IMG/VR virus record: IMGVR_UViG_3300003702_000965
Coordinates: 1 to 64,000 of that record
DNA length: 64,000 nucleotides
Reading direction: 5' to 3' (one strand)
Origin: a virus
Made by a program: the position numbers and the translations under genes. Below, piece after piece: positions 38,542 through 60,529 of this stretch (the first letter of the stretch is position 1; the number at the start of each line of letters is the position of its first letter). A model generated the notes under the pieces. That model did no database searches. It was not told the DNA's origin and saw only the letters and a program-made list of their open reading frames with translations.

Positions 38542-38869
38542 TACTTTCTATTGTTAAAAGTTCTTTTTTCTCGTTGTTTATTTTGGCGCAAAATTTAATG
38601 GAGTTTTTGTTAGTTAATGGGATCATATATTTCTTAATTTTTTCGATGCTTTCTTTGGGGGTGGCGGGGATAGAGGCTTGATACATCCTTTCTAAAAGCT
38701 GGAGCCTTGCTTCTTTTTGGTTTCCGCAGCAAGTAGAGGTTTTTTGGGCCGAGTTCCAAACCTTTATTAAGATTTGATATTCCGGAAAATGCTTGTATAA
38801 CCCTTCATTTTCACTTAGAAACTCAATAAATGCGCTAGCAGAAGAAAAAGTGAAACAATTATCTGGCAT
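38525..38869 (-). CDS. Hypothetical protein with CCG motif
   Basis: 114 aa, overlapping its neighbours. Confidence 0.6.
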   Translation of the reverse strand: MPDNCFTFSSASAFIEFLSENEGLYKHFPEYQILIKVWNSAQKTSTCCGNQKEARLQLLERMYQASIPATPKESIEKIKKYMIPLTNKNSIKFCAKINNEKKELLTIESNGQHT

Positions 38870-39230
38870 ATTTTTCTAAAATCAAATATATATTATAGAT
38901 AAACAGGGTCAAGATTACGACTAACGGGAAATATAGCGGCATAATGAATACGACAGCTACGCTCATCCAAAAGGTTAAGCAAATAGGGCATGATACTAAT
39001 TTTGAAAAAAAGTCATCGTTCGTAATTGACAGAAACTCAGAGTAATTTACACTAACTTTAGCTTGATTAACAAAATTTTCGTATTCTTCCAAGTTAAAAA
39101 GCTCTTTGATTATCCTTATTTTATCGAGCTTTAATACTTTTATATATTCATAAAAAACATTAGTTTTAAGCCAAATTATAAGGACTAGAGAATAAACAAA
39201 TGGAAGCAAGATTATAGCCCCGTTATCCAT
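38859..39230 (-). CDS. DUF1360-like membrane protein
   Basis: Hydrophobic ends and LVSCPICLTFW (CxxCxxxW); ATG 39230 preferred. Confidence 0.6.
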   Translation of the reverse strand: MDNGAIILLPFVYSLVLIIWLKTNVFYEYIKVLKLDKIRIIKELFNLEEYENFVNQAKVSVNYSEFLSITNDDFFSKLVSCPICLTFWMSVAVVFIMPLYFPLVVILTLFIYNIYLILEKYAR

Positions 39231-40632
39231 CTTTTGTATTGCAAAAAGACACAATCACATATCTTGTGCCGCTGGTGGTAGGTCTAGCTCCATGCTTATG
39301 AGTTATATTACCGGGATGCATAACCACTTCTCCAATGTCGTTTTGGACGAGTATTTTTTGCCTTCTAAAATATGTTCCGCTCCCTTCAAAATCCCTTCCA
39401 CGTTGATTTAGGTTAGCTAGAAAGGTCAGCTTCGAATAGTCGTGGTGAAGCGATAGGTGCGACTGCTTGGATGGTATATATTTTATAATGAAGTTTTCCC
39501 CCGTTAAGGATGCCCAGTTTGAGCCTTCCAGCGCGTATAGAAATTCAGCGGCAGGGTAGCAGTGCTTCTTCAAAACTTGTTCATATACATTATTGATTCC
39601 CACTGTATCTAATAACATGTCAGTTGTAGGATAAAATTCATGCCTTTTCTCTGTCCACTCCCCCTCGGTTTCGCATAAATCAATCATTTCTTTACAGAAA
39701 ATTTCATTGAAAAGGGGCCATTTGAAAATGTTTGAGTATCCGGGTTCTCCCAATTCATCTGCCATCAATTCCCATTCGTGGGAGCGAGCCTCTATTCTCA
39801 GGTATTTTTCTTCCCAAGCTTTTGGGTCTTTGTCGTAGTCTCTTATCGACAAGTCTCCTTCCGTTGGCTGACCTTGTGGGCTGTCGAATCTAGATGCTAT
39901 ATTTCCTTTTAAGGGTTCTATTTTTTTTGTCTTGATTGGCTTAAATTCTTCGTAGCCGAAGTCTTCTTTCCCTGACTCCCCCTTTTTGGTCACCTCCTTG
40001 CTTATGGTGACGCCGGGTACTGGGGAAATGAGAGGCTGTGAAAATTTAGACTTCTCTCCATCTGCTCTTATGAAAGCTACCAATGTTAGTCTTCCGTCAT
40101 ACAAATCATTACCAAAGTATTCGTCAGACTTGTGAAAGAAGAGAGGGTTGTAGATCATACATCTGTTATATACGTTTTCTACTGTTTCTCTTACGTCATA
40201 CCATTTTGGATCTCCATCTGATTCTTTATATTCTTTAGACTTTTTATTTGCGCTTTCTTTTAAGTCGTAAATTATAGTGCCTGAATTGGGCTTTGGGTCA
40301 GGAGTAAGGTAAATTAAAGCAACATGAGTGAAGTCTTGATCCATCTTGTCGTCATGAACCCAGCTATCCCCGTCTTTTGAAGTACACAATTGAAACATTA
40401 CCTCAAAATAAGACTCTTTACCTTGCGGCCAGCCCATAACTTCGTATATTCTCCCAGTAAACTCATAATAAAGTTTTTCGCTGAGAGTATGATAAAAAGG
40501 AGTTCTAGTTCCGGGCCAATTGCCCCCAGATGGATGAGTTTCTTTTGGAAAAAACTTCTGAGAAAGGGCGAACTTCCTTACTTTATCAGGATCTGGGAAA
40601 AAATTTTCGAATACAAGCTCTTTGTCACTCAT
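39223..40632 (-). CDS. Tandem 2OG-Fe(II) dioxygenase: N-terminal DUF6445-like domain plus C-terminal procollagen lysyl hydroxylase (PLOD)-like domain
   Basis: N-half: ENFFPDPDKVR, WPGTRT, HDD...FFH...GRLT. C-half: PLFNEIFC, YPTTDM, FIIKYIPSKQSHLSLHHDYS, FEGSGTYF, HPGNITHKHGARPTTSGTRYVIVSF. Confidence 0.85.
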   Translation of the reverse strand: MSDKELVFENFFPDPDKVRKFALSQKFFPKETHPSGGNWPGTRTPFYHTLSEKLYYEFTGRIYEVMGWPQGKESYFEVMFQLCTSKDGDSWVHDDKMDQDFTHVALIYLTPDPKPNSGTIIYDLKESANKKSKEYKESDGDPKWYDVRETVENVYNRCMIYNPLFFHKSDEYFGNDLYDGRLTLVAFIRADGEKSKFSQPLISPVPGVTISKEVTKKGESGKEDFGYEEFKPIKTKKIEPLKGNIASRFDSPQGQPTEGDLSIRDYDKDPKAWEEKYLRIEARSHEWELMADELGEPGYSNIFKWPLFNEIFCKEMIDLCETEGEWTEKRHEFYPTTDMLLDTVGINNVYEQVLKKHCYPAAEFLYALEGSNWASLTGENFIIKYIPSKQSHLSLHHDYSKLTFLANLNQRGRDFEGSGTYFRRQKILVQNDIGEVVMHPGNITHKHGARPTTSGTRYVIVSFCNTKDG

Positions 40633-40638
40633 GATCTG

Positions 40639-41073
40639 TTATATTTTTACTAATTCGACACCATAAAAATCTAATATTTCTTTAGCTTTCAGGTCTTGAT
40701 CATATTCTTCAGAGTATATTACTTGTGGTATTTTGTATGCAGCTATTAGCGTGGCACAGTGAGAACATGGTAATAGAGTCACGGCTAGTATACTAGCTTG
40801 ACCTTTATTGAATAGAGACATACAGTTGGCTTCTGCGTGTATCATATACTTCCTTCTTTCGTCTCTGTCGAGCCAGAATTCCGCGTCCACCTTTTTTTTA
40901 GGAGCTAACCCGTTGTAACCGACTCCTAGGATCATCCTGTCTCGGTCTAAGGCGCAAGCTCCCACTTTTCTATGAGGATCTTCGCTTCTTTTAGAAGCTG
41001 TTTTAGCTATTTCAAGGGCGTATTCTTGCCAGCTAAGCCTTTCTTTAATATCAGTTCCTAGAATATATTCCAC
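40639..41073 (-). CDS. dCMP deaminase
   Basis: RSEDP, GYNG, HAEAN, PCSHC. GTG 41073 preferred because the track's TTG at 41115 is a promoter -35 box. Confidence 0.9.
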   Translation of the reverse strand: MEYILGTDIKERLSWQEYALEIAKTASKRSEDPHRKVGACALDRDRMILGVGYNGLAPKKKVDAEFWLDRDERRKYMIHAEANCMSLFNKGQASILAVTLLPCSHCATLIAAYKIPQVIYSEEYDQDLKAKEILDFYGVELVKI

Positions 41074-41086
41074 AACAAAGGAGCTT

Positions 41087-41115
41087 ATTTTATGAATTAC
41101 TTTGGCAGTGGTCAA
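41087..41115 (-). promoter_or_regulatory. Leftward sigma70-type promoter
   Basis: TTGACC-actgccaaagtaattca(17)-TAAAAT. Confidence 0.75.
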
Positions 41116-41130
41116 GGAAAATAAAAAGAG

Positions 41131-41159
41131 TTGACAAACAAAAAGGTGTCGAATATTAT
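41131..41159 (+). promoter_or_regulatory. Rightward sigma70-type promoter
   Basis: TTGACA-aacaaaaaggtgtcgaa(17)-TATTAT. Confidence 0.85.
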
Positions 41160-41165
41160 TTGTTA

Positions 41166-41592
41166 ATTGCTTTTCGCGGCAAGTAGCCTAGCGAGGATAT
41201 CTCGCTTCAACACGTAAGAGACAACAGGCCCGTAAAAAGACGCCAATCAAGAAGGCTAATAACCTTCACGCTATTTCGGGAAAAGGCGGCGTTTGAGATT
41301 GGAAAAGCTGTTAACTTGGGCGACCCCTCTGGGGGAAGGAAGAAGTTAAAGTGTCAAAAAACAAGTCCTGCCGCTTAATGTTAAGCAATGTACATAGCTG
41401 AATTTGGTTGTGAGCTAGGCTGAAGCATGGCCGACGCGTAGGACTGAAACGGGTAAATTCAGACCATTTTTTAGGTAATGTCATGATTTTCACTTGACGG
41501 TTACCAAGTTGACTGCTATTCCTTAGGCTCCTCCTCGGAGGAAGGAAGAAGTTAAAACTTCTTCTTATGCGTTCTGCGAACGCTAATTTTTT
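41166..41592 (+). ncRNA. Candidate ~430-nt structured RNA or leader, family unrecognised
   Basis: Largest non-coding gap in the window, directly after a near-consensus promoter. Contains many helices, a duplicated 17-nt motif and a 3' hairpin plus U-tract. Confidence 0.55.
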
Positions 41593-41598
41593 AAACAT

Positions 41599-42207
41599 AT
41601 GGATAGCCAAGTAACCGTTTCTGATTTAGAGTTAGTCGATGAAATAAGAGAGTTTAAGTGCTCCGACAGTCTTGTAGCGTTGACTGGTAGGCATGTCGGG
41701 ATCCTAAATAAAGTCTTCAAAAGATATTCGGGGGCCTTAGTTTCTATTGGGTATTCCTATGATTCCTTTAAAGGTGATTTTAATTTAGTTACTTTTAAAG
41801 CTTGCACATCATTTAGAATAGAAGGCGGGTCTAAGTTTTCGACTTGGCTATGTAATCACGCAAGATACCACTGTTTGAATCAAATAAATAAAAAAAATAA
41901 AATTAAAGATTTAAGTATCGAAGATGAGCAATATTTAGAATTCTTAGCGCAAAGCCAAAGCCTGCCCAACTCCTTCAAGCTCGAAATAGATTACGTCTTT
42001 AAAATCCTGTCAGACATGAAAGACAAAAGGATTTCCAAAGTTTTTAATATGAGATATTTCGGAGAAATTGGAAAAAATGGATGCCCTTGGTCTAAAATAG
42101 GTGAAGAACTTGGGATAAGCACCCAGACGGCGATAAATTTACATGAAAAAGGAGCTAAATTAATCAGAAACAAGCTTAAAAGCCCAAACCCGACTGACAA
42201 AATCTAG
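41599..42207 (+). CDS. Phage sigma70-family sigma factor (regions 2 and 4)
   Basis: FKACTSF...SKFSTWLCNHARY (region 2); MRYFG...WSKIGEELGISTQTAINLHEKG (region 4 HTH). Confidence 0.8.
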   Translation: MDSQVTVSDLELVDEIREFKCSDSLVALTGRHVGILNKVFKRYSGALVSIGYSYDSFKGDFNLVTFKACTSFRIEGGSKFSTWLCNHARYHCLNQINKKNKIKDLSIEDEQYLEFLAQSQSLPNSFKLEIDYVFKILSDMKDKRISKVFNMRYFGEIGKNGCPWSKIGEELGISTQTAINLHEKGAKLIRNKLKSPNPTDKI

Positions 42208-42248: not shown

Positions 42249-42554
42249 ATGGCTGATAACAAGTCGAAAAGCACAGAAGTAGGGGCTCTCTGGAAAAGGG
42301 TAGCTAAGAACTCAGGTAAGACTTATCTGGCTGGTCACATCGCAATTGAAGATCTCGGAGCAATGGCTCTAGAGAAGAAAGTTAAGATAGTGGTCTTCTC
42401 CAACAATAAAGAAGGGCAATCTGAAAATGCTCCAGATTTTAGGATGTATTTATCCAAAGTCATAGAGCAGAGGAAAGAAGAGTCTTCGACGGCGACTCCT
42501 CAGCCTGAAGCCGAGGTGGTTTCCGCTTCGCCTGAAGATGGAGATCTCATTTAA
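42249..42554 (+). CDS. DUF736-like protein with acidic tail (possible ssDNA-binding protein)
   Basis: EVGALWKR...GKTYLAG...NAPDFRMY; ends EDGDLI. Confidence 0.6.
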   Translation: MADNKSKSTEVGALWKRVAKNSGKTYLAGHIAIEDLGAMALEKKVKIVVFSNNKEGQSENAPDFRMYLSKVIEQRKEESSTATPQPEAEVVSASPEDGDLI

Positions 42555-43632
42555 CTTACCTATTAACTCAGTCTCTTTCGGGCAAGTTTCTTTAGCTTTA
42601 CTCAGGGAGGCTTTCAACAGAAAGCTTCAGCCTTCTCTTGTTCCGATAGGGGAGGTTGATCTTTCTTCACAGTCAGGCGTAACTGACGAGTTTAAATCTT
42701 GGTTAGACTCCTGCCTCAAAAAGGGAAGGACCGAACACAGCAGGGAAGTCCCATGCTTGAAGCTTTGGCACCTTAACGGAGGCATGGAATCTATTAGCAA
42801 CAAACCTAATTTGCTAACGTTTTACGAACTAGACGAACCGACTAAAACCGAGATTAACGTAGCAAGAAACAATAAAGTAATATTTACTTCATCTTATACG
42901 AAAAATATCTTCGAAAGAGAAGACATAGATTGCGGTTCAATCCCTCTAGGATTTGATTTGTATAATTTTCATAAAATAAAACCTACTGACAAACGTTTTC
43001 CCGACGACAGGATAACCTTCAACTTAGTTGGTAAATTCGAGAGGAGGAAGCACCACGAAAAAGTAGTTAATGCTTGGCTAAAGAAATTCGGAAACAACAG
43101 GAAATATCTCCTTCAGTGTGCTATATATAATCCGTTCTTTTCGGAATCCGATAACGAGAAAGTCTGGGATTCTCTTGGCAGAAAGTCGGGTTTTTTCAAT
43201 TTAAGTTTTTTAGGATTCATGAAGAGGAACTCTATCTATAATGATTTTCTGAATTCTGGAGATGTTGTAATCGGAATGTCAGGAGGAGAAGGCTGGGGCC
43301 TCCCCGAATTTCAGTCCGTTTGTTTGGGGAAACATGCTGTTATATTAAACGCTTCAGCATATAAAGATTGGGCCAACGAAGATTGTTGCGTTATGGTTGA
43401 GCCTTCTGGAAAAATCCCCGCTTATGATGGAATATTTTTTAAAGAGGGTGGGGACTATAACCAAGGGAGCATTTTTGATTTCTCTGAAGATGATTTTATT
43501 TCCGGCTGCGAAGAAGCGATTAAAAGAGTAGAGGCTTCCAAAGATAAAAATAACGAAGAGGGAGAACACCTTAAGGATAAATTTTCCATCTCTAATTCAT
43601 TCGACAAAATATTAGATTGTATATATGCCTGA
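42538..43632 (+). CDS. GT-B (GT4-like) glycosyltransferase
   Basis: VGKFERRK; SGGEGWGLPEFQSVCLGK. Confidence 0.8.
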   Translation: MEISFNLPINSVSFGQVSLALLREAFNRKLQPSLVPIGEVDLSSQSGVTDEFKSWLDSCLKKGRTEHSREVPCLKLWHLNGGMESISNKPNLLTFYELDEPTKTEINVARNNKVIFTSSYTKNIFEREDIDCGSIPLGFDLYNFHKIKPTDKRFPDDRITFNLVGKFERRKHHEKVVNAWLKKFGNNRKYLLQCAIYNPFFSESDNEKVWDSLGRKSGFFNLSFLGFMKRNSIYNDFLNSGDVVIGMSGGEGWGLPEFQSVCLGKHAVILNASAYKDWANEDCCVMVEPSGKIPAYDGIFFKEGGDYNQGSIFDFSEDDFISGCEEAIKRVEASKDKNNEEGEHLKDKFSISNSFDKILDCIYA

Positions 43633-43969
43633 ATATACATATGAGAATCCGGAGACAGGAGAAACTGTAAACGTCTTCCAAAAAATAGACGACGATCATG
43701 AATACTCAAAAGACGGACTACAATACAACAGAGTCTTCACGGTCCCTAACGCTTCCATAGACTCGGACCTGTCCTCCCTTTCCGAAGAAGCCTTCGTTAG
43801 AGCTACGGCCAAGAAGAAAGGTACCTTGGGTGATTTATGGGATGCTTCAAAAGAAGCCAGTCTAAAGAGGGAGAAAACTTACGGGAAAGATCCCGTTAAG
43901 GAGAAATATTTCAAAAAATATAGCGAAAAAAGAAAAGGAGCTAAGCATAAAGATGACCCGTCCAGATGA
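43625..43969 (+). CDS. FmdB-like zinc-ribbon family protein lacking cysteines
   Basis: MPEYTYENPETGETVNVFQ matches the MPxYxYxCxxCG pattern without the Cys residues. Confidence 0.55.
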   Translation: MPEYTYENPETGETVNVFQKIDDDHEYSKDGLQYNRVFTVPNASIDSDLSSLSEEAFVRATAKKKGTLGDLWDASKEASLKREKTYGKDPVKEKYFKKYSEKRKGAKHKDDPSR

Positions 43970-44972
43970 AATAACTTTCGTCGTAATATCTAACGGCAAC
44001 AATCACGAAAAGCTAAAGAGGCTTTTAACAAGCATAGAGCATAACGGCGAACACCACCTAAAGTCTTATGAAATAAACCTATGTGGCGAAGCTGGAGACT
44101 TCGAGCTTCCTGCTATTGTAAATTATTTTCATTTGCCAGAGGACGCCTCTAACGCTCGACTTGGGGACATGAGAAACGTTGGGTGCGAAAACGCGACTAA
44201 AGAAACAATTTGCATTTTAGATGACGATTTTATTTTGGCTCCTGATTGGGTAGAAAATATTCCTCATAATTATTTCGATATTATGACTTCTCAGGTTAGA
44301 GTTCCTGATGGAGGCAGATATTGGGATCACGCATGCTACATGAGTCCCACTAAAGGTCACGTAATTCTTATGCCAGACGAAAAGGATGACTGTTTGTATA
44401 TGTCTGGAGGATGCGCTTGGATGATGAAGAGGAAAGTGTGGGAAAAAGTTAAGTGGGACTCTTCTGGGATTTACAACATGAGCAGTCTGGAGGAGTACAA
44501 AGAAGGAAAGCATAATGAAGACACTCACTTTTCTTTAAGGTGTAGGGAAAATAAGTTTTTATTAATCCATAACCACGACTCCATTTCTTTCCATGACGAC
44601 GATTCCTATACTAATGTCGGCAGGATCTGCAACAGAAGAAGAGACGACAGAAGCTATTCTTGGGTTTTGGACTTGAGCTTATCTTTTTCTCCGTCAGTGT
44701 TATGCGACTTTGCTGTTTCCCTCTTTTCGAACGGCTTTCTTCCTGAATCGGCTGATATACTTAGGTATGGACTGATTAACTTTCCATCAAATTATGATCT
44801 ACAAAAGACATTTGAATCCACAATAGTTAAACACTCTGGAGTTTTAGAAGACTCTAGATACTCTCCCAATGGTGACCCTTTATATTTAGAGTTTAAGTCT
44901 TTTTATGACGACGACTCAGATGACGACTCCGAACTCGAGGGACTAACCCAAGAGCAAATGAATATCCTCTGA
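43953..44972 (+). CDS. GT-A (GT2-like) glycosyltransferase with C-terminal helical region
   Basis: RNVGCENA...CILDDD; NEDTHFSLR. Confidence 0.8.
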   Translation: MTRPDEITFVVISNGNNHEKLKRLLTSIEHNGEHHLKSYEINLCGEAGDFELPAIVNYFHLPEDASNARLGDMRNVGCENATKETICILDDDFILAPDWVENIPHNYFDIMTSQVRVPDGGRYWDHACYMSPTKGHVILMPDEKDDCLYMSGGCAWMMKRKVWEKVKWDSSGIYNMSSLEEYKEGKHNEDTHFSLRCRENKFLLIHNHDSISFHDDDSYTNVGRICNRRRDDRSYSWVLDLSLSFSPSVLCDFAVSLFSNGFLPESADILRYGLINFPSNYDLQKTFESTIVKHSGVLEDSRYSPNGDPLYLEFKSFYDDDSDDDSELEGLTQEQMNIL

Positions 44973-44973
44973 T

Positions 44974-45717
44974 ATGAGAATAGGCCCAATTCAAAGTTTA
45001 TGGATAGGAGACGAGCTTTCTGATTTGGAGGTTTTATGCATAAATTCCTTCTTGAAAAATGGATATGATTTTCATCTTTACACGTACGGAACTATAAAAA
45101 ACGCGCCTAAAGATTGCGTCATATTAGACGGCAACGAGTTTCTAGAAGAATCGGAGGTTTTCTCCTACAAAGTAGGAGTAGGGAAGGGCAGCTTTTCAGC
45201 CTTCTCTAACCTCTTTAGATACAAAATGCTTTATGACATTGGCGGGATCTGGTGCGACACTGACGTAATAAATTTAAATCCCATCCCGAACATGGAATAT
45301 CTTTTCGCGTCAGAGAAAGATGGCGACGAAATAGTCTGCGCTTCTTGTTTCATAAAAGCTCCTAAGGGTTCTGCTTTCGCCAAGTATTGTTACGATAAGG
45401 CCTCTTCTGTAGACAGAGAGAAGCTTGAATGGGGCCAGATAGGTCCTAAGTTAGTAGGGGAAGCGGTTAAGACTTACGGTCTTAGCGACTTTATTGTTCC
45501 CTTCAAAAAATTCAACCACGTTCCTTGGTATAGCGCTGAACTCTTTTTTTACGATGATCCAGAAAATATGGGCGAGATGCTTTATGAGAGCATAGCCAGC
45601 GAAGCGTATTGCATTCATATGTGGAACGAAGTTTGGAGAAGATTAGGTTTGGATAAGAGCGCGGAGTTTCCGAAAGGCTGTTTCTACGAGGTGTTAAAGT
45701 CCAAAATAAAAGTATGA
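44974..45717 (+). CDS. GT32-like (alpha-1,4-glycosyltransferase/DXD) glycosyltransferase
   Basis: QSLWIG, FSNLFRY, GGIWCDTD, WGQIGPKL, IHMWNEVWR. Confidence 0.85.
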   Translation: MRIGPIQSLWIGDELSDLEVLCINSFLKNGYDFHLYTYGTIKNAPKDCVILDGNEFLEESEVFSYKVGVGKGSFSAFSNLFRYKMLYDIGGIWCDTDVINLNPIPNMEYLFASEKDGDEIVCASCFIKAPKGSAFAKYCYDKASSVDREKLEWGQIGPKLVGEAVKTYGLSDFIVPFKKFNHVPWYSAELFFYDDPENMGEMLYESIASEAYCIHMWNEVWRRLGLDKSAEFPKGCFYEVLKSKIKV

Positions 45718-46469
45718 AGAAAATATATTTAAATGATTTCTTTCAGGAAAGTGGTTATGATTGGGAGAACGACGCACCCATGATGAAAGAAATTTGCAAG
45801 CTCAGCAAAACTAGACACATGGAAAACCCTCCGAAAGAGTTTCAATTTACTTACGGAATGGAGCAGCCATTTTTTATCAAGGCTTTTTTGGAAAACGTAT
45901 ATTGTGAGAAGTTTTTTGAGATTGGAACGGGAAGGGGAACTTGTTCCATGGCGGCTTCTTTATGTAAAGACATGAGAAAGGTAGATAGTTTTGACATTCT
46001 TGTTCCGGACGAGAAGAGAGATAACGTAATAAATTTCAGAAAGGAGGAAGCGTCTAATATGGATATTCTGGAGAGATTTAGGACTAAGGCTGCTAAGATT
46101 ACAAACTTCGTTGCTCAAGCGTACCCTAGTGAAATTAAATTTAATCATGTTTCAGGGTACGCGAAGTTTATTGACGACCCAGATAATAAAGACTATAGCG
46201 TCTGTTTCATAGACGGAGACCACGATAATGCTGAAACAATTTTAAAAGACTATCTAATATGCAACAAAGTGATGGAGAAATCTAAAGAGGCTTATATTAT
46301 TTGGGACGATTACTATCCAGATAAGTTCGCCGTTAAGGAAGTTGTAGATAAAATCACGGAAGTAGACGGAAGGGAGTGCACTCTAGTTCCTTTCAGAGGC
46401 CATTTATTTGATAGCGACGATAAAGCCAGAGAGGAAGACTCTGGCGAAATAATAATGAAAATGACATGA
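45714..46469 (+). CDS. Class I SAM methyltransferase (Methyltransf_24-like)
   Basis: FEIGTGRG, FIDGDH, IWDDY. Confidence 0.8.
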   Translation: MKKIYLNDFFQESGYDWENDAPMMKEICKLSKTRHMENPPKEFQFTYGMEQPFFIKAFLENVYCEKFFEIGTGRGTCSMAASLCKDMRKVDSFDILVPDEKRDNVINFRKEEASNMDILERFRTKAAKITNFVAQAYPSEIKFNHVSGYAKFIDDPDNKDYSVCFIDGDHDNAETILKDYLICNKVMEKSKEAYIIWDDYYPDKFAVKEVVDKITEVDGRECTLVPFRGHLFDSDDKAREEDSGEIIMKMT

Positions 46470-47461
46470 AGATAGCGTATTTATGCGATAGAGACACCTA
46501 TCTACATAAAATGTCTAGGGTTAGGTTTCACGGCATTCAAGCCATATCGGAAACGAATGAAGTTAAATGGCTAGGGAGAGGATGGAACAATGACGCTCAA
46601 TTAGGATTTGGGTGGAACGGCTCCCTAACCGTAGACGAAAACTTTAAAAGATTAGGTTTTTATCCTGATTTAATAATTGGATATAAACCTTTAGATATTC
46701 TAGGCTTTTGTGACTCTAAAATCAAGAAGTGCATTAGATACAATGAAATGTACGACGTAGAATGGACGATAAGAGAAATCGTCGAGAGTAACGCTGACAT
46801 AGTCATTTGCCACCACCAAAATGATTATGAAGAATACGTTTCTAATTATCAAGTTTCGGAAGACCACAAAGTTGGCCTTAGTAGCGTAACTTTCGTTAAC
46901 ATCCCCCATTGTGCTGAAAAGACAGTTTTCAAAGACTATGGTCTCGCCAAAGAAACAGACTTACTCTTAGTTGGCGCTACCTTCGCTCAGAGTACCCTAG
47001 GTCAGCATTATCCCTTGAGAGACAGAATGGCAAGTGACATCTTACCAAAACTTTCGCTTAAATATAATTGCAAGATATATGAGCACCCCGGATACAGCAT
47101 GGGAGACGCACACACCAACATATACGCCCAAAACTTTGCGAGAGCCATAAACTCAGCCAAAATAGCTATAACCTGTTCCGGCTTGCCCAGAAGTAGATTT
47201 GGTAAATATGTAGAAATTCCCATGTGCAGAACAGCCATTGCTGCCGACATGCCCGGCGAAATGCAAGACTTTTTTAAGGAATTTTTAATTAACATAGACA
47301 TGAGTCACTCCGACGCTCAAATAATGGCCTTGTTGGAGAATAACCTAAAAGAGCCCCACAGGATACAACAGAAGGCAGACAGAGGATATGAGATGAGCAA
47401 GAAATTCGACCAAGAATATTACGCCGAATTATTTAACGAAAAAGTCTTGAGCTTGTTATGA
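46466..47461 (+). CDS. GT-B glycosyltransferase (CgeB/Glyco_trans_1_2-like)
   Basis: YPLR, HPGY, INSAKIAI, GKYVEIPMC. Confidence 0.75.
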   Translation: MKIAYLCDRDTYLHKMSRVRFHGIQAISETNEVKWLGRGWNNDAQLGFGWNGSLTVDENFKRLGFYPDLIIGYKPLDILGFCDSKIKKCIRYNEMYDVEWTIREIVESNADIVICHHQNDYEEYVSNYQVSEDHKVGLSSVTFVNIPHCAEKTVFKDYGLAKETDLLLVGATFAQSTLGQHYPLRDRMASDILPKLSLKYNCKIYEHPGYSMGDAHTNIYAQNFARAINSAKIAITCSGLPRSRFGKYVEIPMCRTAIAADMPGEMQDFFKEFLINIDMSHSDAQIMALLENNLKEPHRIQQKADRGYEMSKKFDQEYYAELFNEKVLSLL

Positions 47462-48384
47462 AAGTCCTACCCATTCACGGAAACGAGAACTGGCTCTGCG
47501 ATAGATACGCGCAGGAGTGGAAGGATCTCAACACTTTCCACGCTTGTCCCTACAACAACTCTAATGATGCGGATGTTCTTTGGTTGCTTGCTCCTTGGGA
47601 ATGGAAACAGATACCCAAAGCGTATTTAGAGACAAAGAAAGTCGTTTGCACTATCCACCACATGGTTCCAGACAAAACCGACGAGTCTACTTGGAAAGAA
47701 TTCGAAGAAAGAGATAAGTATATTGACGCTTACCATACCCCCTGCTTTCCCTCTTACGCTCAGTTCGGCCCCAGAATAGGCCACAAGCCGTTCTTAATTA
47801 ATCCTTTTTGGTGCAATAATGAAATCTTTAAACCAATAGACGACAAAATTGGATTGAGGGAGAAATACGGAATAAAGCAAAAAGCCCATTTAATGGGCTC
47901 GTTCCAAAGAGACACAGAAGGCTCTGACCTCTCTTCCCCAAAACTGGAAAAAGGTCCGGATGTTTTTTGTGACATTATTGAGAAAGAGAAGGAAAAGAAC
48001 CCCGACGTTGAGGTTCTATTAGCTGGATGGAGAAGGCAGTATGTTATAAATAGATTAAACAAGGCCGGGATAAAGTATTATTATTTTGAACTACCTTCAA
48101 TTAAAACGATTAATGAGCTGTATAACTGTTTGGACCTTTATGTTGTAGCTGCCAGATACGAGGGAGGGCCTCAGTCTATTCCGGAATGTATTATGACCAA
48201 TACCCCCATTGTATCTACTCCCGTTGGCTTATCCAGCAAACTGCTTCACCCCAAAAGTATATTTTCCTCTTCTTCTAATTTTAATAGAGCTTCTCCTGAC
48301 TTGTCTTGGGGAGAAAGAGCTATTGCGCCTTATATAATTCCAGAAGGCTTCAAACCATTCAATGATTTTTTCGATAGCTTATGA
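47458..48384 (+). CDS. GT4-like glycosyltransferase
   Basis: KGPD; YNCLDLYVVAARYEGGPQSIPEC; PIVSTPVG. Confidence 0.85.
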   Translation: MKVLPIHGNENWLCDRYAQEWKDLNTFHACPYNNSNDADVLWLLAPWEWKQIPKAYLETKKVVCTIHHMVPDKTDESTWKEFEERDKYIDAYHTPCFPSYAQFGPRIGHKPFLINPFWCNNEIFKPIDDKIGLREKYGIKQKAHLMGSFQRDTEGSDLSSPKLEKGPDVFCDIIEKEKEKNPDVEVLLAGWRRQYVINRLNKAGIKYYYFELPSIKTINELYNCLDLYVVAARYEGGPQSIPECIMTNTPIVSTPVGLSSKLLHPKSIFSSSSNFNRASPDLSWGERAIAPYIIPEGFKPFNDFFDSL

Positions 48385-49319
48385 ATTCACTTAATTTTTC
48401 CACTTTGATTAGGTGGCTGATAACTATTCAAGACTCGGGGTATCCTTGGACTTTGCAAAAAAACCCAAAGGGGGTAGACAGGTGCCTTCTTTCGTCAGCT
48501 AGCCTTTTTTGTAAGCTCTCTAAAATTTACGAAAATTATTTTCAACCCGACAAAGAAGAATTGAAAAAAATTATTTTATCCTTCACTAGAAAAAAGGATG
48601 GCATGCTGGAAGACATATCCGGCAAACAGAATATCATATCAGAGACGAGGCAGGCTTTTTCGGGCTTGAAAAATATAGGAGAAAAACTTCCCCCTTTTGA
48701 CCCTTCTGAATATTTTCAAGAGCCTCTTTATTTTCTACAAGACGACGAGTGGGACAACCCTTGGGGCGCTGGAGCGCATCTTTCTCATTATTTGTTTTTC
48801 ATGAAACAAACAGGACAAACCTCGAAAATTAGCGAGGCCTTAGATAGGATTAAAATATATGAACACGAAGACGGCTGGTATAGAAACAAGCCCGACGATC
48901 ACACTTTAGTTAATGGGATCATGAAAGTCATGACGGCTTACGACGCTGCCAAAGTAGAAATTCCCGCGAGTTTAAAGGAAACTATATTAGACTACGTTTT
49001 TAAATATGCTTGCGAAGGTGGCGGTTGTGGAATTTACGACTTCGTCTATGTTGTGGATAAATGTATGGACTTGGGGCTTCACACCGACAAATGTGAGAAA
49101 TCTTTAAAGAACTGTTTTGAATTCATATTGAAGCACCAAAAGAAAGATGGAGGGTTTTCTTATAACCTTAATCAGTGTCAAACAAGCTTTTACGGTAGGC
49201 GCATAGCCGATCCGTTTGCGTGTGGGGACGTTCATGGAACGACTTTACTTAGCATGGCTTTAGTGAGAATTGATAGTGGTTTAAATTTAGATTATAATCT
49301 GTCTTTCGCGGTTACATGA
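48381..49319 (+). CDS. Alpha/alpha-barrel (prenyltransferase/squalene-cyclase-repeat-like) protein
   Basis: QKKDGGF, EHEDGWY and RKKDGML QW-like turns; NPWGAG; DVHGT. Confidence 0.5.
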   Translation: MNSLNFSTLIRWLITIQDSGYPWTLQKNPKGVDRCLLSSASLFCKLSKIYENYFQPDKEELKKIILSFTRKKDGMLEDISGKQNIISETRQAFSGLKNIGEKLPPFDPSEYFQEPLYFLQDDEWDNPWGAGAHLSHYLFFMKQTGQTSKISEALDRIKIYEHEDGWYRNKPDDHTLVNGIMKVMTAYDAAKVEIPASLKETILDYVFKYACEGGGCGIYDFVYVVDKCMDLGLHTDKCEKSLKNCFEFILKHQKKDGGFSYNLNQCQTSFYGRRIADPFACGDVHGTTLLSMALVRIDSGLNLDYNLSFAVT

Positions 49320-50092
49320 ATAAGATAGTTGGAATTTGTTTATTCAAAGACGAAGAGATATACGCTGAAACCGTTATACATAATATAATTGACTTTTGCG
49401 ACAAGATTATTATCATAGATAACAATTCCACCGACAAGACCTTCGATATAGTAAGAAAACGCTTCTCGTCTAGTCCCAAGGTGACTATGTTAAAAATGGA
49501 AGACCATTTAGCTTCGGGAAGAATGACGTATTCTTTTTTCGGATCAAAAACTTTTCTTTTTGCGGTAGATGGTGACGAAATATACGATAGAGACGGGTTA
49601 AAAGCTATGAGACAAAGAATTAAAAATGGATTTTTCGACAAAGTTTGGAAAATCAGCGGAACCTCTTTCCACGTTAACGATGTCTCCTCTACTTGCGTTT
49701 CAGGTTTTTCCTGCCCTCCCAATAAGCATGTGACGAAACTTTACAATTTTAACGTTATAAATTCTTGGGATCAAGGCGAAAGACTACATGGGGTTGGCTT
49801 AAATCCACAGCCATATTATAAAGAGAGTCTTATTGATGTAAAATTCGCAAATGAAAGAGGCTTGGAAGAGTCTAATCAAGTAGATTGGAGATTCTCTGAA
49901 TTTAGGTGCCTGCATATGTGTTTTGTTCGAAGATCCCAACGAGACTCCGAGGATTCAAATTTTCGGTGTGAAGCTGGCTTCTATAGACCAGCCCCAATAG
50001 GGCACGATTTTAATTATAAAGCTATAAAATACGGGCTAGGGCCTACTCTAAAAATAAAAAGATCCACCTTGAAGCCTTTCCATTTGCCGTGA
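49316..50092 (+). CDS. GT2-like glycosyltransferase
   Basis: FKDEE, IIDNNSTDKT, VDGDE. Confidence 0.8.
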   Translation: MNKIVGICLFKDEEIYAETVIHNIIDFCDKIIIIDNNSTDKTFDIVRKRFSSSPKVTMLKMEDHLASGRMTYSFFGSKTFLFAVDGDEIYDRDGLKAMRQRIKNGFFDKVWKISGTSFHVNDVSSTCVSGFSCPPNKHVTKLYNFNVINSWDQGERLHGVGLNPQPYYKESLIDVKFANERGLEESNQVDWRFSEFRCLHMCFVRRSQRDSEDSNFRCEAGFYRPAPIGHDFNYKAIKYGLGPTLKIKRSTLKPFHLP

Positions 50093-51045
50093 TAGACGAA
50101 CTCCCCAAAGATAAAACTTTCGTTTTCGGCATGTGCCCTAATAGACACTCTGCCGGAGGAGGGGGCACGAAGTTTGTTAATTATTTTAGCGAAAAGCTTG
50201 TTGGGAGAGCTTCGTTTTTTATTAACTCCAATGAGCCTGACCCTGATTACATTCTGCTTTTCGATCCTAGACATTTAGATTTTTCAGGCAATTGGCTTAG
50301 TCTCGATGTTCTAAAAGAGATCAAAGCTAGAGGCATAAAGAGTAAAATCATCCACAGAATAAACGACATAGGATACCCTAAGAATAGACCACCAGAGTAT
50401 GTTGACGCTGTAATAGAAATGGCTAATTTATCCGATAAGGTAATTTATGTTTCTGATTTTGTTAGAGATTATTATGGAGACAGGATAAAGACGGAGTACG
50501 AAGTCATACCAAACGGCGTAGACGAAAGGATCTTCACTTTTAAGGAATATTCTTTTGATAAACTTAGGTTCGTTACACACCACTGGTCTTCTGATCCCAT
50601 GAAAGGCAAGGTTCTATACGATTTCATAGACGAAATGTTGTCGGATTTAGAGGGGGAGGCTGAGTTCACCTATATTGGGAACCCTCCCAAGGGGTCAAAT
50701 TTCAGAAGAACCAACGTGATAAAACCCCTTTACGGAGAAGAGCTGGCTAATGAAATTAAAAAGCATAACATTTATGTTTCTGGTTCCCAGCATGAACCCT
50801 GCGGCATGCATAAACTAGAAGGAGTTGCCTGCGGACTTCCCATAATGTACAATGTAGACAGCGGAGATTCGTACCTTACGTCAGATTATGGAGTCGGCAT
50901 AGAATATAACGGTTTTCCCAAATTTGGTATTGCTTTAGCTGAAATGATGGGAAACCATAAGCGTTTTTATGATAAAATAGTTAATAATTTTGATTTATAT
51001 TTAGAAAATAGATGCGTTAAGTATTTAGAATTTATAACGAAATGA
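50089..51045 (+). CDS. GT4-like glycosyltransferase
   Basis: GGGGTKF, IPNGVD, KG, EPCGMHKLEGVACGLP. Confidence 0.85.
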   Translation: MIDELPKDKTFVFGMCPNRHSAGGGGTKFVNYFSEKLVGRASFFINSNEPDPDYILLFDPRHLDFSGNWLSLDVLKEIKARGIKSKIIHRINDIGYPKNRPPEYVDAVIEMANLSDKVIYVSDFVRDYYGDRIKTEYEVIPNGVDERIFTFKEYSFDKLRFVTHHWSSDPMKGKVLYDFIDEMLSDLEGEAEFTYIGNPPKGSNFRRTNVIKPLYGEELANEIKKHNIYVSGSQHEPCGMHKLEGVACGLPIMYNVDSGDSYLTSDYGVGIEYNGFPKFGIALAEMMGNHKRFYDKIVNNFDLYLENRCVKYLEFITK

Positions 51046-51953
51046 AATATTTAGTTACAGGAGGTTTCGGGTTCATAGGCTCCCACTTAGCCGTTAAGCT
51101 TATTAGAGACGGCCATCACGTTACAATCATAGACGACTGTTCCTCTGACAGCGTCTCATCCCCCCCTTGGCATGATAATTGTGACTTCATCAATTGCGAC
51201 ATCATCAACACCCAGTTCTATGAAAAATTTTTGAATGGTGTTGACGTAGTGTTTCATTTAGCCGCTAAAGCTAGGGTTCAGCCCTCTATAGCTGATCCTG
51301 TTTATTTCGATTATACCAATGTTCATGGTACAGTTAACCTATTCAAAGCGTGCGTCGACGCTGGAGTCAGAAAAATTGTTTTTAGTTCGTCCTCTTCGGT
51401 TTACGGGGACGCTGAAATGCCTACTTCAGAAAATCATCGGCTTTCCCCCCAAAGTCCTTATGGTTTACAAAAGAAGATAGGGGAGGAGTATCTCGAACTT
51501 TTCACCAAGATTTACGACATAAAGGGGGTTTCTTTGAGATATTTTAATGTTTACGGAGAAGGAATGCCCCTTGGAGGGGGTTACGCAACCGCCATTGGCA
51601 TCTTTTTAAATCAAAGAAGGAATGATAAAAAAATCACCATATTTGGAGACGGAGAACAGACTAGAGATTTTACTCATGTAAACGACGTTATCCAAGCTAA
51701 TATATTAGCGGCTACGGCTACCACAGAGGGACTTGAAAATTATGAAGTTTTCAATGTGGGGAACGGGGACAATGTTAGCGTGAACGAAGTAGCTAAATTA
51801 ATAGGAGGAGACATACAGTATCTAGCGCCTAAAATTGAACCCAAAGCTACACTTGCGGACAACTCAAAAATTAAAGAAAAACTAAAATGGGCTCCTACCG
51901 GAAATTTGCATAAATGGATCCCCGAATACAAGAAAATCGCGAACATACAATAA
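51042..51953 (+). CDS. NAD-dependent nucleotide-sugar epimerase/reductase (extended SDR)
   Basis: VTGGFGFIGSH, HLAA, SSSSVYG, YGLQK, RYFNVYG, GDGEQTRDF. Confidence 0.9.
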   Translation: MKYLVTGGFGFIGSHLAVKLIRDGHHVTIIDDCSSDSVSSPPWHDNCDFINCDIINTQFYEKFLNGVDVVFHLAAKARVQPSIADPVYFDYTNVHGTVNLFKACVDAGVRKIVFSSSSSVYGDAEMPTSENHRLSPQSPYGLQKKIGEEYLELFTKIYDIKGVSLRYFNVYGEGMPLGGGYATAIGIFLNQRRNDKKITIFGDGEQTRDFTHVNDVIQANILAATATTEGLENYEVFNVGNGDNVSVNEVAKLIGGDIQYLAPKIEPKATLADNSKIKEKLKWAPTGNLHKWIPEYKKIANIQ

Positions 51954-51954
51954 A

Positions 51955-53079
51955 ATGCAAATATTAAACATAACTACAGCTAGACAAATTAGAAATAAAA
52001 TGGATCCGAACGAAAAGTGTGTTGTCATCACTGGCGTCACAGGCCAAGACGGAAGTAATATGGTTGATTATCTACTTGATACGTCTCATTCCATATGGGA
52101 TAATGGCTTACATGTATACGGCGGAGCCAGAAGATTAAGCCTCGACAACCATACAAATATTGAACATTTAAAAGATAACGAGAATTTCTCTTTAATAAAC
52201 CTAGATATTACCGACACTACTTGCGTTAATAGAGTCATAAAAGATCTGCAGCCAGATTATTTTATTAATTTTGCGGCGCAAAGCTTTGTCGGGAGTAGCT
52301 GGGACCTTCCCAAGCAAACTTTCGCTGTTAACGCTACTGCTGTTTTGGATATGCTTGAGGCTATTAGACTCTATGCTCCTCTTTGTAGATTTTACCAAGC
52401 GGGTTCTAGCGAAGAGTTTGGAGATGTCGCCTACGCTCCACAGGACGAGAAGCATCCCTCAAGACCAGTTAGCCCTTACGGAGCCTCTAAGGTTGCCGCT
52501 AGGGCTTTAGTTAAGGTTTATAGAGACTCTTATAATCTATATGCTTGCGCTGGCTTCCTTTTTAATCACGAAGGAGTTCGTAGAGGCGAGGAATTCGTAA
52601 CCAGAAAGATTACTAAGGGGGTAGCTCGGATAAAACAAGCTATGATAAATGGGGAAAAATTCGAACCAATACAATTAGGCAACGTGAACTCCAAAAGAGA
52701 TTGGTCTGATTCGGAAGATTTCGTGCACGGCGTTTGGCTTATGCTTAATCAAGATAAGCCGGGAGAATATGTTTTATCTAGCGACGAAACTCACGAAATA
52801 AAGGAGTTCGTTTCTCTAGCTTTTAACGCGGCTGGGATCGATGGACACTGGCAGGACGAAGGCATGGATGAAAAATTTGTAACTGATTTACATAATTATA
52901 TTCTTTCTGAAGTCAATGAAAAGTTCTACAGGCCAGCGGAAATTGATTTGCTTTACGGAGACTCTTCCAAGGCAAGAAAAGAGCTAAAGTGGGTTCCTAG
53001 GGTGTCTTTTCCTCAGCTTGTTCGCAAAATGGTTTCTAATGATTTGAGCTTGTTGGGAATTGATGACATTTCTTCTTGA
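51955..53079 (+). CDS. gmd: GDP-mannose 4,6-dehydratase
   Basis: ITGVTGQDG, AAQSFV, YQAGSSEEFG, SPYGASK, LFNHE, FVTRKIT, KRDW, YRPAEIDLLYGD. Confidence 0.93.
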   Translation: MQILNITTARQIRNKMDPNEKCVVITGVTGQDGSNMVDYLLDTSHSIWDNGLHVYGGARRLSLDNHTNIEHLKDNENFSLINLDITDTTCVNRVIKDLQPDYFINFAAQSFVGSSWDLPKQTFAVNATAVLDMLEAIRLYAPLCRFYQAGSSEEFGDVAYAPQDEKHPSRPVSPYGASKVAARALVKVYRDSYNLYACAGFLFNHEGVRRGEEFVTRKITKGVARIKQAMINGEKFEPIQLGNVNSKRDWSDSEDFVHGVWLMLNQDKPGEYVLSSDETHEIKEFVSLAFNAAGIDGHWQDEGMDEKFVTDLHNYILSEVNEKFYRPAEIDLLYGDSSKARKELKWVPRVSFPQLVRKMVSNDLSLLGIDDISS

Positions 53080-57275: not shown

Positions 57276-58180
57276 TCGACAAAGTTAGAGAAGTTTTAGA
57301 GGAAATAGGATACACTAACATAAAGGATCTTGGCATGGAGTTTAGGATGAGACCCATATATCGAGATTCCGATAATGATACCGTATTAAGAGTTAAAAAG
57401 GACACAGGATTTTTCGTTGACTTTAAAGAGTCGATATCAGGTTCGTTGGAGGACCTAGTCAAAATCACTTTAAATCTAAAAGACTTAAGCGAAGCTAAGG
57501 TTTGGATGAAAGACAAAACCAACTTCCAAGTAACTCGCGCCCAGACGAAGTCCAAGCTGAAGGAGCCTAGAACTTTCCCAGAAGACACTCTTGACGCAAT
57601 GGTCAAAGATCACTCTTATTGGATTTCTAGGGGCATAAGCGAAGACAATTTAAAACTATTCGGAGGAGGCGTAATCAAAACTGGTCGAATGAAAGACAGA
57701 TACGTTTTTCCAATTAGAAACTACAAATCACAAATAGTAGGATTAGCGGGGAGAGATTTAATAAACAATAAAGACAACAAATTAAGACCTAAATGGAAAC
57801 TCGTTGGAGATAAATCTACTTGGAGATATCCTTTCCAGTTTAACCACAGATATATCACGAAGTCTAAACGCGTAATAGTGGTGGAGAGCATAGGCGACAT
57901 GTTGGCACTATGGAGCTCTGGTGTAAAGATTACATTAGTTTCTTTTGGGTTGGATTTAAGTATACCATGCTTGAATGCTTTGCTTAAAATCGATCCTCGC
58001 AAAATATTCATTTGTTTTAATAACGATTCTTCTGGCGCTGGAGACGCAGCTTCGACTAAACTCAGAAAGAAGCTTTTAAAATATTTTGATCCAAACCAAG
58101 TAGAAATTAAGCTACCTTCTGGATATAATGACTTTGGGGAGATGTCAATAGACGAAATAAAAACATTCTTTGAATCATGA
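57272..58180 (+). CDS. DNA primase (TOPRIM)
   Basis: RYVFPI...GLAGR, PKWK, VVESIGD, FNND, NDFGE. Confidence 0.85.
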   Translation: MIDKVREVLEEIGYTNIKDLGMEFRMRPIYRDSDNDTVLRVKKDTGFFVDFKESISGSLEDLVKITLNLKDLSEAKVWMKDKTNFQVTRAQTKSKLKEPRTFPEDTLDAMVKDHSYWISRGISEDNLKLFGGGVIKTGRMKDRYVFPIRNYKSQIVGLAGRDLINNKDNKLRPKWKLVGDKSTWRYPFQFNHRYITKSKRVIVVESIGDMLALWSSGVKITLVSFGLDLSIPCLNALLKIDPRKIFICFNNDSSGAGDAASTKLRKKLLKYFDPNQVEIKLPSGYNDFGEMSIDEIKTFFES

Positions 58181-60516: not shown

Positions 60517-60519
60517 ACT
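60491..60519 (+). promoter_or_regulatory. Sigma70-type promoter with GAAAGCGT spacer box, inside the FkbM 3' end
   Basis: TTGACG-agctgGAAAGCGTcgtt(17)-TAGACT, 7-10 nt before GTG 60527/ATG 60530. Confidence 0.7.
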
Positions 60520-60529
60520 AGCTTCGGTG

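Follow-up and report, generated by a model that had tools for sequence, protein, structure and literature searches.

A DUF6445-lysyl hydroxylase fusion protein and a collagen-like fibre with lysine at the Y position on a bacteriophage contig

Can a bacteriophage hydroxylate, and perhaps glycosylate, the lysines of its own collagen-like fibre? Hydroxylysine and its glycosides are considered a signature of animal collagen. L230 of Acanthamoeba polyphaga mimivirus, a bifunctional collagen lysyl hydroxylase (LH) and hydroxylysine glucosyltransferase (PMC5802723, PMC9614988), has been described as the first such enzyme outside animals (PMC9614988), and a 2022 review considers prokaryotic and phage collagens to be generally or essentially unmodified (PMC8968730). 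The question is raised by a minus-strand gene at positions 39223-40632 of the DNA analyzed here (the window, 64,000 nucleotides), which is the first 64 kb of the IMG/VR virus contig IMGVR_UViG_3300003702_000965 (83,950 bp, estimated to be 55% complete). As judged from the open reading frame (ORF), its translation and domain searches, the gene encodes a double 2-oxoglutarate (2OG)/Fe(II) dioxygenase of 469 residues (P0001), in which a DUF6445 domain, a linker and a PLOD-type LH domain follow one another. The same window begins with the gene of a collagen-like fibre, and an earlier note, made from the sequence alone, had proposed that this fibre is hydroxylated by the phage's own enzyme and then glycosylated.

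The two oxygenase domains of P0001

The C-terminal domain (residues 256-469; 39226-39867, minus strand), which was delimited by phmmer, a profile, a structural model and residue mapping, is a genuine member of the PLOD/L230-type lysyl hydroxylase family by sequence, fold and active site. A plain phmmer search of the PDB with residues ~256-465 retrieves human LH3/PLOD3 (E = 4e-26) and the LH domain of mimivirus L230 (E = 4e-24), with no further chain below E 0.3 and no further 2OG oxygenase at E<10. When a profile of 25 stand-alone homologues is used instead, the two matches strengthen to 4e-51 (LH3) and 9e-51 (L230); the next class is the Bacillus anthracis prolyl 4-hydroxylase (P4H) at 3e-5, and no TET/JBP, AlkB or thymine-hydroxylase chain is found at E<1. 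The fold gives the same picture. The AlphaFold2 model of the domain has a predicted local distance difference test score (pLDDT) of 93.8, and Foldseek aligns it with L230 (6ax6) at a TM-score of 0.85 over the query (TMq) and 0.92 over the target (TMt), with a root mean square deviation (rmsd) of 1.7 A, and with LH3 at TMq 0.83-0.87; all oxygenases outside the LH family score at most 0.61 in TMq, and thymine 7-hydroxylase (T7H) scores 0.39.

The catalytic residues are conserved as well. In L230 the Fe(II) triad H825/D827/H877 and the 2OG ligands Y814/R887 are essential (Guo et al., PMC5802723). With L230 numbered as chain index + 660, which gives H825, D827, H877, R887, Y814 and L873, the triad maps to H396, D398 and H447 of P0001, and the ligands of the 2OG C5-carboxylate to Y385 and R457. 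The HxD motif, the distal histidine and the arginine are invariant across the 25 LH homologues. The dimer interface is conserved in part. The LH domain of L230 forms a tail-to-tail homodimer in which the knob residue L873 sits in a pocket made by Y798, Y801 and Y831, and the dimer is needed for activity on long collagen chains (PMC5802723). The knob is I443 in P0001, a conservative change, and Y798 is kept as Y366; Y801 corresponds to E369, in a column beside an alignment gap, and Y831 to L402, neither of which is aromatic.

In a tree of 198 LH domains, a quick FastTree reconstruction with a midpoint root from which no direction of transfer is claimed, the clade of P0001 (9 rows, support 98) falls among phage-type LHs. 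It is sister to the stand-alone LHs of syntenic relatives (see below) and then to a clade of GT25-LH fusions, where GT denotes a glycosyltransferase family, and it is separated from a eukaryote-type clade with good support, to which a choanoflagellate PLOD belongs. The statement of the earlier note that the C-terminal ~210 residues follow the PLOD catalytic domain, with HxD...H and the 2OG-binding arginine intact, is confirmed by profile, fold and residue mapping. Profile and structure place the domain with LH3 and L230, and neither they nor the phylogeny group it with nucleic-acid or small-molecule oxygenases.

The protein as a whole is more than the PLOD-like enzyme that had been noted: the LH domain is genuine, but the protein is a fusion of two oxygenases, the N-terminal one of which the earlier note does not mention. 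The ORF contains no internal stops, and no signal peptide is evident by eye. The fusion is genuine and not an assembly artefact, because the same architecture occurs in eight metagenomic orthologue clusters from independent samples (58-61% identity, 455-472 aa) and in one further viral locus (L002). Between the two domains lies a linker rich in Lys, Glu and Pro (residues 189-255; 39868-40068, minus strand), recognized from the sequence. In GT-LH fusions a segment homologous to the C-terminal part of this linker stands before the LH domain, and BLAST alignments of the fusions with P0001 reach residue ~179-221 of the latter.

The N-terminal domain (residues 6-188; 40069-40617, minus strand) is a 2OG/Fe(II) oxygenase of the DUF6445, or Syn9 gp52-like, family (PF20043, E = 1e-10, 42.4 bits against a cut-off of 24; phrog_1644, E = 3e-27). 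Because H93-x-D95...H167 and R181 are invariant in an alignment of 26 DUF6445 homologues, the domain is predicted to be active. Its model (pLDDT 91.6) matches only generic double-stranded beta-helix folds in Foldseek (PHD2, OGFOD1, P4H, SnoN and HygX, TMq 0.49-0.64), so that protein prolyl hydroxylases (PHD2, OGFOD1, P4H) and small-molecule oxygenases fit about equally well, and a profile search of the domain against the PDB returns nothing. Stand-alone DUF6445 proteins of ~190 aa are common in cyanomyoviruses and occur in a pelagimyophage, as seen by tblastn; the N-terminal domain of P0001 is a member of this family, sharing the invariant HxD...H...R and 26-35% identity with the proteins of cultured phages, but is fused to a lysyl hydroxylase where those stand alone. 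The Syn9 gp52-like family was described as classical 2OG dioxygenases, for which roles in secondary metabolism were proposed (Iyer et al. 2010, PMC2938197).

The collagen-like fibre and its linkage to lysyl hydroxylases

The proposed substrate is the collagen-like virion fibre encoded at 1-2400 on the plus strand (PF01391, E = 1.5e-42), the 5' end of whose gene is cut by the contig end. Blocks of Gly-X-Y at nucleotides 4-318 and 805-1857 are joined by a non-collagen insert and followed by a C-terminal Peptidase_S74 intramolecular chaperone domain (nucleotides 2014-2208), and the combination of collagen repeats with this chaperone identifies the product as a trimeric virion fibre. Among its 152 Gly-X-Y triplets, Lys occurs 43 times at Y (28%) and never at X, and Pro is confined to X, with 34 occurrences. 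GxKGxKG doublets (GPKGQKG, GAKGQKG, GQKGQKG) number 22. Since acidic residues (Asp/Glu) are almost absent, the lysines are not there as salt-bridge partners in Lys-Asp/Glu pairs. The earlier note had placed the fibre at 1-1839 with its lysines in Y; the lysine position holds, indeed exclusively, and the ORF extends over 1-2400 to include the S74 domain. Its designation as a tail fibre is not upheld: the tape-measure module is downstream of the gene, and the ORFs between the two have no PHROG match even at E 0.05.

Another lysine-rich repeat protein is encoded outside the window. P0267 (207 aa; contig 76690-77313, L212:12690-13313) has a Cys-rich N-terminus followed by GSKGY and MGTKGF repeats, which provide many GxKG motifs and yet do not form a Gly-X-Y collagen. 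Its homologue in the related record G004 (L214:1330-1752) keeps the N-terminus and has a Lys-free GATGATG tail. As a conserved lysine substrate P0267 was ruled out, the repeat tail of that homologue being without Lys.

Across viral records, LH genes and collagens with Lys at Y go together. Two IMG/VR scans, in one of which 244 contigs matched the LH query, yielded 156 distinct LH loci, and these were clustered at 70% LH identity into 14 lineages; lineages were counted instead of loci since many loci are near-copies and all viral records are fragments. A large collagen-like ORF is present in the LH locus in 8 of the 14 lineages and in 48 of 50 informative members (those with at least 7 kb of upstream sequence, a criterion set after the data had been seen), mostly just upstream and on the same strand. 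The LHs of these linked lineages come in several architectures: GT4-LH (~560-610 aa), GT4-GT25-LH (~760-820 aa), GT25-LH (~456 aa) and stand-alone LH (205-211 aa). The collagens that accompany all of them carry Lys at Y and almost never at X. The remaining picture is less uniform, as 6 of the 14 lineages show no collagen within 10 kb.

The preference for Lys at Y is far from general among viral collagens. In LH-linked collagens (66 loci) the median Lys content at Y is 30%, and 86% of them reach at least 15%; the window fibre (n = 1), at 28%, falls in line. Background collagens, sampled from viral records with a generic (Gly-x-y)x9 DNA pattern, have a median of 1.3% in the listed loci (n = 40; at least 15% in 7) and of 0.2% in all stored loci (n = 67; at least 15% in 13). 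A whole-record search of the 40 background collagen records, with a positive control of 5 out of 5, revealed a true LH in a single record (E = 7.5e-78), and the collagen of that record has by far the highest Lys content at Y, 57%. Weak matches to LH in background loci (E 1e-8 to 1e-16) were rejected, being other 2OG oxygenases. LH thus predicts a collagen with Lys at Y, but the converse is false. The co-occurrence of LH with GxK-rich collagens, to which the earlier note had looked for an answer, is positive at the level of the family (8 of 14 lineages; 30% against 0.2-1.3% Lys at Y).

Proposed substrate and modifications in this phage

We consider it probable that the phage hydroxylates Y-position lysines of its own collagen-like fibre. 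Every experimentally characterized member of the LH family acts on collagen Lys (PMC5802723, PMC9614988). In the proposed scheme, the LH gene would give rise to a cytoplasmic bifunctional 2OG/Fe(II) dioxygenase, whose C-terminal domain would convert Lys at Y of Gly-X-Lys-Gly to hydroxylysine, mostly in the GPKGQKG, GAKGQKG and GQKGQKG units of the fibre encoded at 1-2400. Hydroxylation would take place on unfolded nascent chains, before the C-terminal S74 chaperone drives trimerization. The hydroxylysine would then be O-glycosylated, most plausibly by a separate GT25 encoded at 82.6-83.3 kb of the contig, and the N-terminal DUF6445 oxygenase would add a second modification to the same fibre.

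Several findings weigh against this assignment of the substrate. P0001 has non-aromatic residues at two of the three aromatic positions of the L230 dimer pocket (E369, L402). Eight of the nine K-rich background collagen records that were searched are without LH, including two that are 90% and 100% complete, and the occurrence of such collagens in near-complete genomes means that Lys at Y alone does not require hydroxylation. In the phage's own lineage no collagen adjoins LH (none lies within 10 kb in L002, L003, L005 or L067), and the co-occurrence of the two within the lineage is seen in this contig and in one fibre fragment of G004. Furthermore, LH shares its operon with dCMP (deoxycytidine monophosphate) deaminase, small ORFs and ribonucleotide reductase, downstream of a sigma-70-like promoter match, a setting that gives no hint of a structural-protein role. 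With LH in a nucleotide-metabolism operon 37 kb from the fibre gene, which is on the opposite strand, the substrate is assigned here from the family and not from the neighbourhood.

The relatives that bear on this point are the loci L002, L003/L004, L005 and L067, which are syntenic with the window: a sigma-like gene and two further genes lie on one side, and the order dCMP deaminase, LH, DUF1360-like gene is kept on the other. In this slot LH is a stand-alone protein (220-243 aa) in L003, L005 and L067, and the DUF6445 fusion occurs in the window and L002 only. Whole-record collagen searches of G001-G003 were negative; these records stop short of the tape-measure region, so the result is uninformative. 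G004, the record of L067 with its stand-alone LH in the same slot, begins with a fibre fragment that carries GPKGQKG units. A similar arrangement is found in an unrelated group (L215-L225; GT25-LH, 453-501 aa), which has no collagen within 10 kb of LH and whose two longest records encode giant Lys-at-Y collagens 33-40 kb from it, the layout seen in the window.

Whether the hydroxylysine of the fibre is subsequently glycosylated is less certain, and we regard this step as plausible, with the odds leaning slightly to the other side. Fusions of LH to GT25 and/or GT4 number in the hundreds among marine proteins and account for most of the family, and the genes around LH form cassettes of several kinds: two collagens followed by a P4H-like oxygenase, GT2 and GT4-LH (the L057 type); collagen, DUF6445, GT4-GT25-LH and a P4H-like oxygenase (L267); and collagen, a DUF6445-containing protein, GT2, LH and ATP-grasp (L269-L282). 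The contig holds parts of such cassettes in dispersed form, namely DUF6445 (fused to LH), a P4H-like oxygenase and a GT25. In the last type of cassette an ATP-grasp ligase gene directly follows the stand-alone LH (L270:10644-11597, and more generally L269-L282), which hints at a further modification of the fibre.

The animal collagen galactosyltransferase belongs to GT25. L230, too, resembles this family in its N-terminal half (PMC9614988). The only GT25 of the contig is a stand-alone gene outside the window, 42 kb from LH (contig 82,609-83,340, L212:18609-19340; PF01755, 33.9 bits against a cut-off of 24). It has a weak BLAST link to LH-fused proteins (E 4e-6 to 7e-4) and a homologue with 44% identity in G004. 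The window itself contains a plus-strand cluster of glycosyltransferase and sugar-nucleotide genes at 42538-53079, in which Pfam identifies two GT2 genes, a GT32-like gene, a methyltransferase, two GT4 genes, a GDP-fucose-synthase-like epimerase and a GDP-mannose 4,6-dehydratase. The glycosyltransferases and nucleotide-sugar enzymes that the earlier note had listed there are therefore present by Pfam, the latter as GDP-sugar enzymes. Its further statement that enzyme, substrate and sugar supply are all encoded in the window holds for the enzyme and for the Lys-at-Y fibre; a role of the cluster is unsupported and the GT25 lies outside. BLAST of the LH-fused GT modules and the cassette GT2s against all ORFs of the contig gave no match to the 42.5-53 kb cluster. 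In L002 the cluster is kept. The loci of L003, L005 and L067 retain LH but lack all of the cluster past its first two genes. As a demonstrated sugar supply it was rejected, having no homology to the LH-fused GTs and being missing in relatives that keep LH.

Three alternatives have to be weighed. The one that survives best shares the hydroxylation step and holds that the fibre is hydroxylated but not glycosylated, hydroxylysine serving a purpose of its own (in helix stability, cross-linking or contact with the receptor) and the glycosyltransferases, GT25 included, serving host-envelope or other glycans. It would explain why LH in this lineage is fused to an oxygenase and not to a GT, and why the GT25 lies 42 kb away and carries the Pfam name of a lipopolysaccharide (LPS)-biosynthesis family. 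Fibre-region GTs of pelagimyophages have been read as LPS modifiers (PMC7029224), and mimivirus virions contain hydroxylysine whose glucosylation is unconfirmed on particles (PMC9614988). On the other side, most family members have LH fused to GT25 and/or GT4, which is difficult to account for if the GT does not use the LH product as its acceptor, and the GT25 is kept in G004. We find hydroxylation without glycosylation rather unlikely, though it is a serious contender.

The main rival to a fibre substrate is that LH acts on a non-collagen lysine, in an early host or phage protein such as a translation factor or ribosomal protein, or in another X-Lys-Gly phage protein, and that the fibre remains unmodified. 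Parallels exist among protein hydroxylases, since a bacterial P4H acts on EF-Tu and ribosomal oxygenases are known. This alternative draws on the early-looking operon with its nucleotide-metabolism genes, kept in the four syntenic relatives, on the lineages whose LH has no collagen within 10 kb, on the GxKG motifs of the GSKGY-repeat protein P0267 and on the Lys-rich viral collagens that occur without LH. However, the characterized family members, as cited above, all act on collagen Lys, and the linkage of LH to Lys-at-Y collagens spans eight lineages. The unlinked groups, moreover, show collagens whenever the record is long enough, and the Gly-rich tail of the P0267 homologue in G004 is free of Lys. 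A non-collagen substrate is therefore unlikely in our view. Modification of nucleic acids or nucleotides (base hydroxylation followed by glycosylation of the T-even or TET/JBP type, with dCMP deaminase and the GT cluster as partners) is very improbable, for although a dCMP deaminase adjoins LH, ribonucleotide reductase and the large GT cluster lie near, the DUF6445 domain has no known substrate and weak PHROG matches are labelled 'DNA endonuclease', the C-terminal domain groups exclusively with protein lysyl hydroxylases and is remote from T7H in fold, these PHROG labels (E 1e-7) are annotation noise, Pfam finds no DNA methyltransferase beside the LH gene, and the loci of three LH-bearing relatives lack the GT cluster past its first two genes.

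If hydroxylation of the fibre by the LH domain is accepted, the N-terminal domain may work on the same fibre at a different site, which we put forward tentatively. In L267 and L269-L282, the collagen gene and the LH gene have a separate DUF6445 gene between them, and this position inside collagen-to-LH cassettes suggests a protein (fibre) substrate. A comparison of the collagens linked to DUF6445 with those linked to P4H-like oxygenases showed no shared distinguishing residue in their compositions; the collagens of the latter set contain hardly any Pro. A further possibility is the P4H-like 2OG-FeII_Oxy_3 oxygenase at 58177-58782 (plus strand, 201 aa; Pfam E = 1e-15), a possible further fibre-modifying enzyme, which is a full-length homologue of the oxygenases of two cassettes (L057:6873-7475 and L267:11308-11928; 36-37% identity, E 1e-38 to 1e-43) and is kept at 55% identity in G001 and G002.

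A broader and more doubtful reading would make DUF6445-LH a two-headed fibre enzyme that carries out two hydroxylations on one collagen. The DUF6445 and small P4H-like oxygenases that abound in the genomes of marine cyanophages and pelagiphages would then be virion-protein hydroxylases and not enzymes of metabolism, secondary metabolism included, and together with GT25, GT4 and GT2 they would form a modular, animal-like toolkit of collagen maturation (a lysine hydroxylase with second and third hydroxylases) that tunes host-recognition fibres. As a separate observation, the collagens at L057:2570-6831, beside the P4H-like oxygenase of that locus (L057:6873-7475), are nearly Pro-free, with mostly Asn, Ala and Ser at X, and the oxygenase is for this reason unlikely to be a prolyl hydroxylase there.

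Known systems and the genomic setting

One of the closest known systems is that of mimivirus. L230 is likewise viral, and its LH domain, which is 29-30% identical to that of P0001, shares the fold, the Fe triad and the 2OG-binding Tyr and Arg, and stands C-terminal in a multidomain protein; mimivirus also encodes collagen-like proteins with Lys at Y (PMC9614988). The two differ in the N-terminal partner, which is GT25-like in L230 and a DUF6445 oxygenase here, where the GT25 is separate and unlinked. They differ also in the host, an amoeba in one case and a bacterium in the other, in two of three dimer-pocket aromatics, and in that activity was demonstrated for L230 and is predicted for P0001. 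Human LH3/PLOD3 with COLGALT1/GLT25D1 (6fxk, 8zgc) offers a second comparison. The LH domains are homologous, and the phage pathway would run in the same way from Lys to hydroxylysine to glycosyl-hydroxylysine at X-Lys-Gly, with a GT25 partner. Unlike LH3, the phage protein is without the LH3-type GT and accessory domains, belongs to a separate clade of the tree and would work in the cytoplasm of a prokaryote instead of the endoplasmic reticulum. A further comparison is with the GT4-LH, GT25-LH and GT4-GT25-LH fusions encoded next to giant collagen-like fibre genes in uncultured marine phages (L006-L081, L226-L282), which have LH domains 44-53% identical to that of P0001, collagens with Lys at Y and the same accessory parts (DUF6445 or P4H-like oxygenase, GT25). 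Here, in contrast, LH is fused to DUF6445, the genes are spread over more than 80 kb and do not form a cassette after the fibre, and the phage is not T4-like.

Our full-text literature searches found no PLOD-type enzyme or hydroxylysine described in a bacteriophage, and no publication on phage GT-LH fusions beside collagen genes. What is new in this locus is the fusion of two oxygenases, the dispersed gene layout and the non-T4-like background. If the proposed scheme is correct, hydroxylation and glycosylation of collagen would be widespread in the ocean virome, and the enzymes would work in the bacterial cytoplasm, which would make them useful for producing modified recombinant collagen. Phage GTs in host-recognition regions that have been read as LPS modifiers (PMC7029224) would need reinterpretation, and decoration of the fibre could add a new level of control over host range or stability. 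In addition, the fusion ties the orphan DUF6445 family, which is common in cyanophages, to a collagen pathway and provides a first testable hypothesis for its substrate.

The contig is that of an uncultured tailed bacteriophage, and a eukaryotic virus does not fit, because it encodes a tape measure with a PhageMin_Tail domain, the replication genes named below and a prepilin-like gene. Genes for replication and nucleotide metabolism include a DnaB-type helicase, a Toprim primase, the alpha subunit of DNA polymerase III (PolIII-alpha) with PHP and exonuclease pieces, a RecA-like protein, ribonucleotide reductase and dCMP deaminase. The phage is not T4-like, given its PolIII-alpha, its 2330-aa tape measure (8893-15885, plus strand) and structural proteins without PHROG matches. 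Directly after the tape measure, a 909-aa protein with an F5/8 type C (galactose-binding-like) domain (15892-18621, plus strand) is a candidate receptor-binding protein. Searches of 18 structural-module ORFs (2406-34300, plus strand) against PHROG, 10 of them at E 1e-5 and 10 at E 0.05 with 2 in both sets, gave nothing meaningful, the lone match being marginal (E = 0.018) and to a family of unknown function; in this phage group, virion proteins have diverged to an unusual degree. A megablast search of the 38-42 kb region against 50,697 phage records gave no match and hence no cultured relative. By tblastn, cultured cyanophages match the family of the N-terminal domain, and a relative of the C-terminal domain in S-PRM1 and S-CAM9 is weak (27% identity).

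Two features of the contig stand apart from the fibre pathway. The replicase is split, with separate ORFs for PHP, an exonuclease (RNase_T) and the PolIII-alpha NTPase/finger region (60491-63999, plus strand, continuing at L212:3-1154), which is unusual in phages. Outside the window, a prepilin-like gene (contig 83374-83949, L212:19374-19949) with an N-methylation motif (PF07963, E = 7e-9) follows the GT25 and may hint at the host.

The immediate neighbours of the LH gene are conserved. The dCMP deaminase (40639-41115, minus strand; Pfam E = 3e-17) lies directly upstream in the same minus-strand operon and has the same position in L003, L005 and L067; it is genomic context and not a component of the system. 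A sigma-70-like promoter match is found at 41115-41087, and no minus-strand terminator match occurs before 35371. On the other side, a DUF1360-like membrane protein of 131 aa (38859-39254, minus strand; PF07098, E = 1.7e-4, 21.9 bits against a cut-off of 21), the start of whose gene overlaps the LH stop, directly follows LH in all syntenic relatives (L002, L003, L005, L067), irrespective of whether LH is fused or stands alone, and it may be functionally coupled to LH. Beyond the deaminase, a sigma-factor-like ORF of 202 aa (41599-42207, plus strand) has no Pfam match and is kept in all syntenic relatives. It is preceded by a non-coding gap of ~430 nucleotides (41166-41592), and a strong sigma-70-like promoter match (TTGACA-17-TATTAT) lies at 41131-41159.

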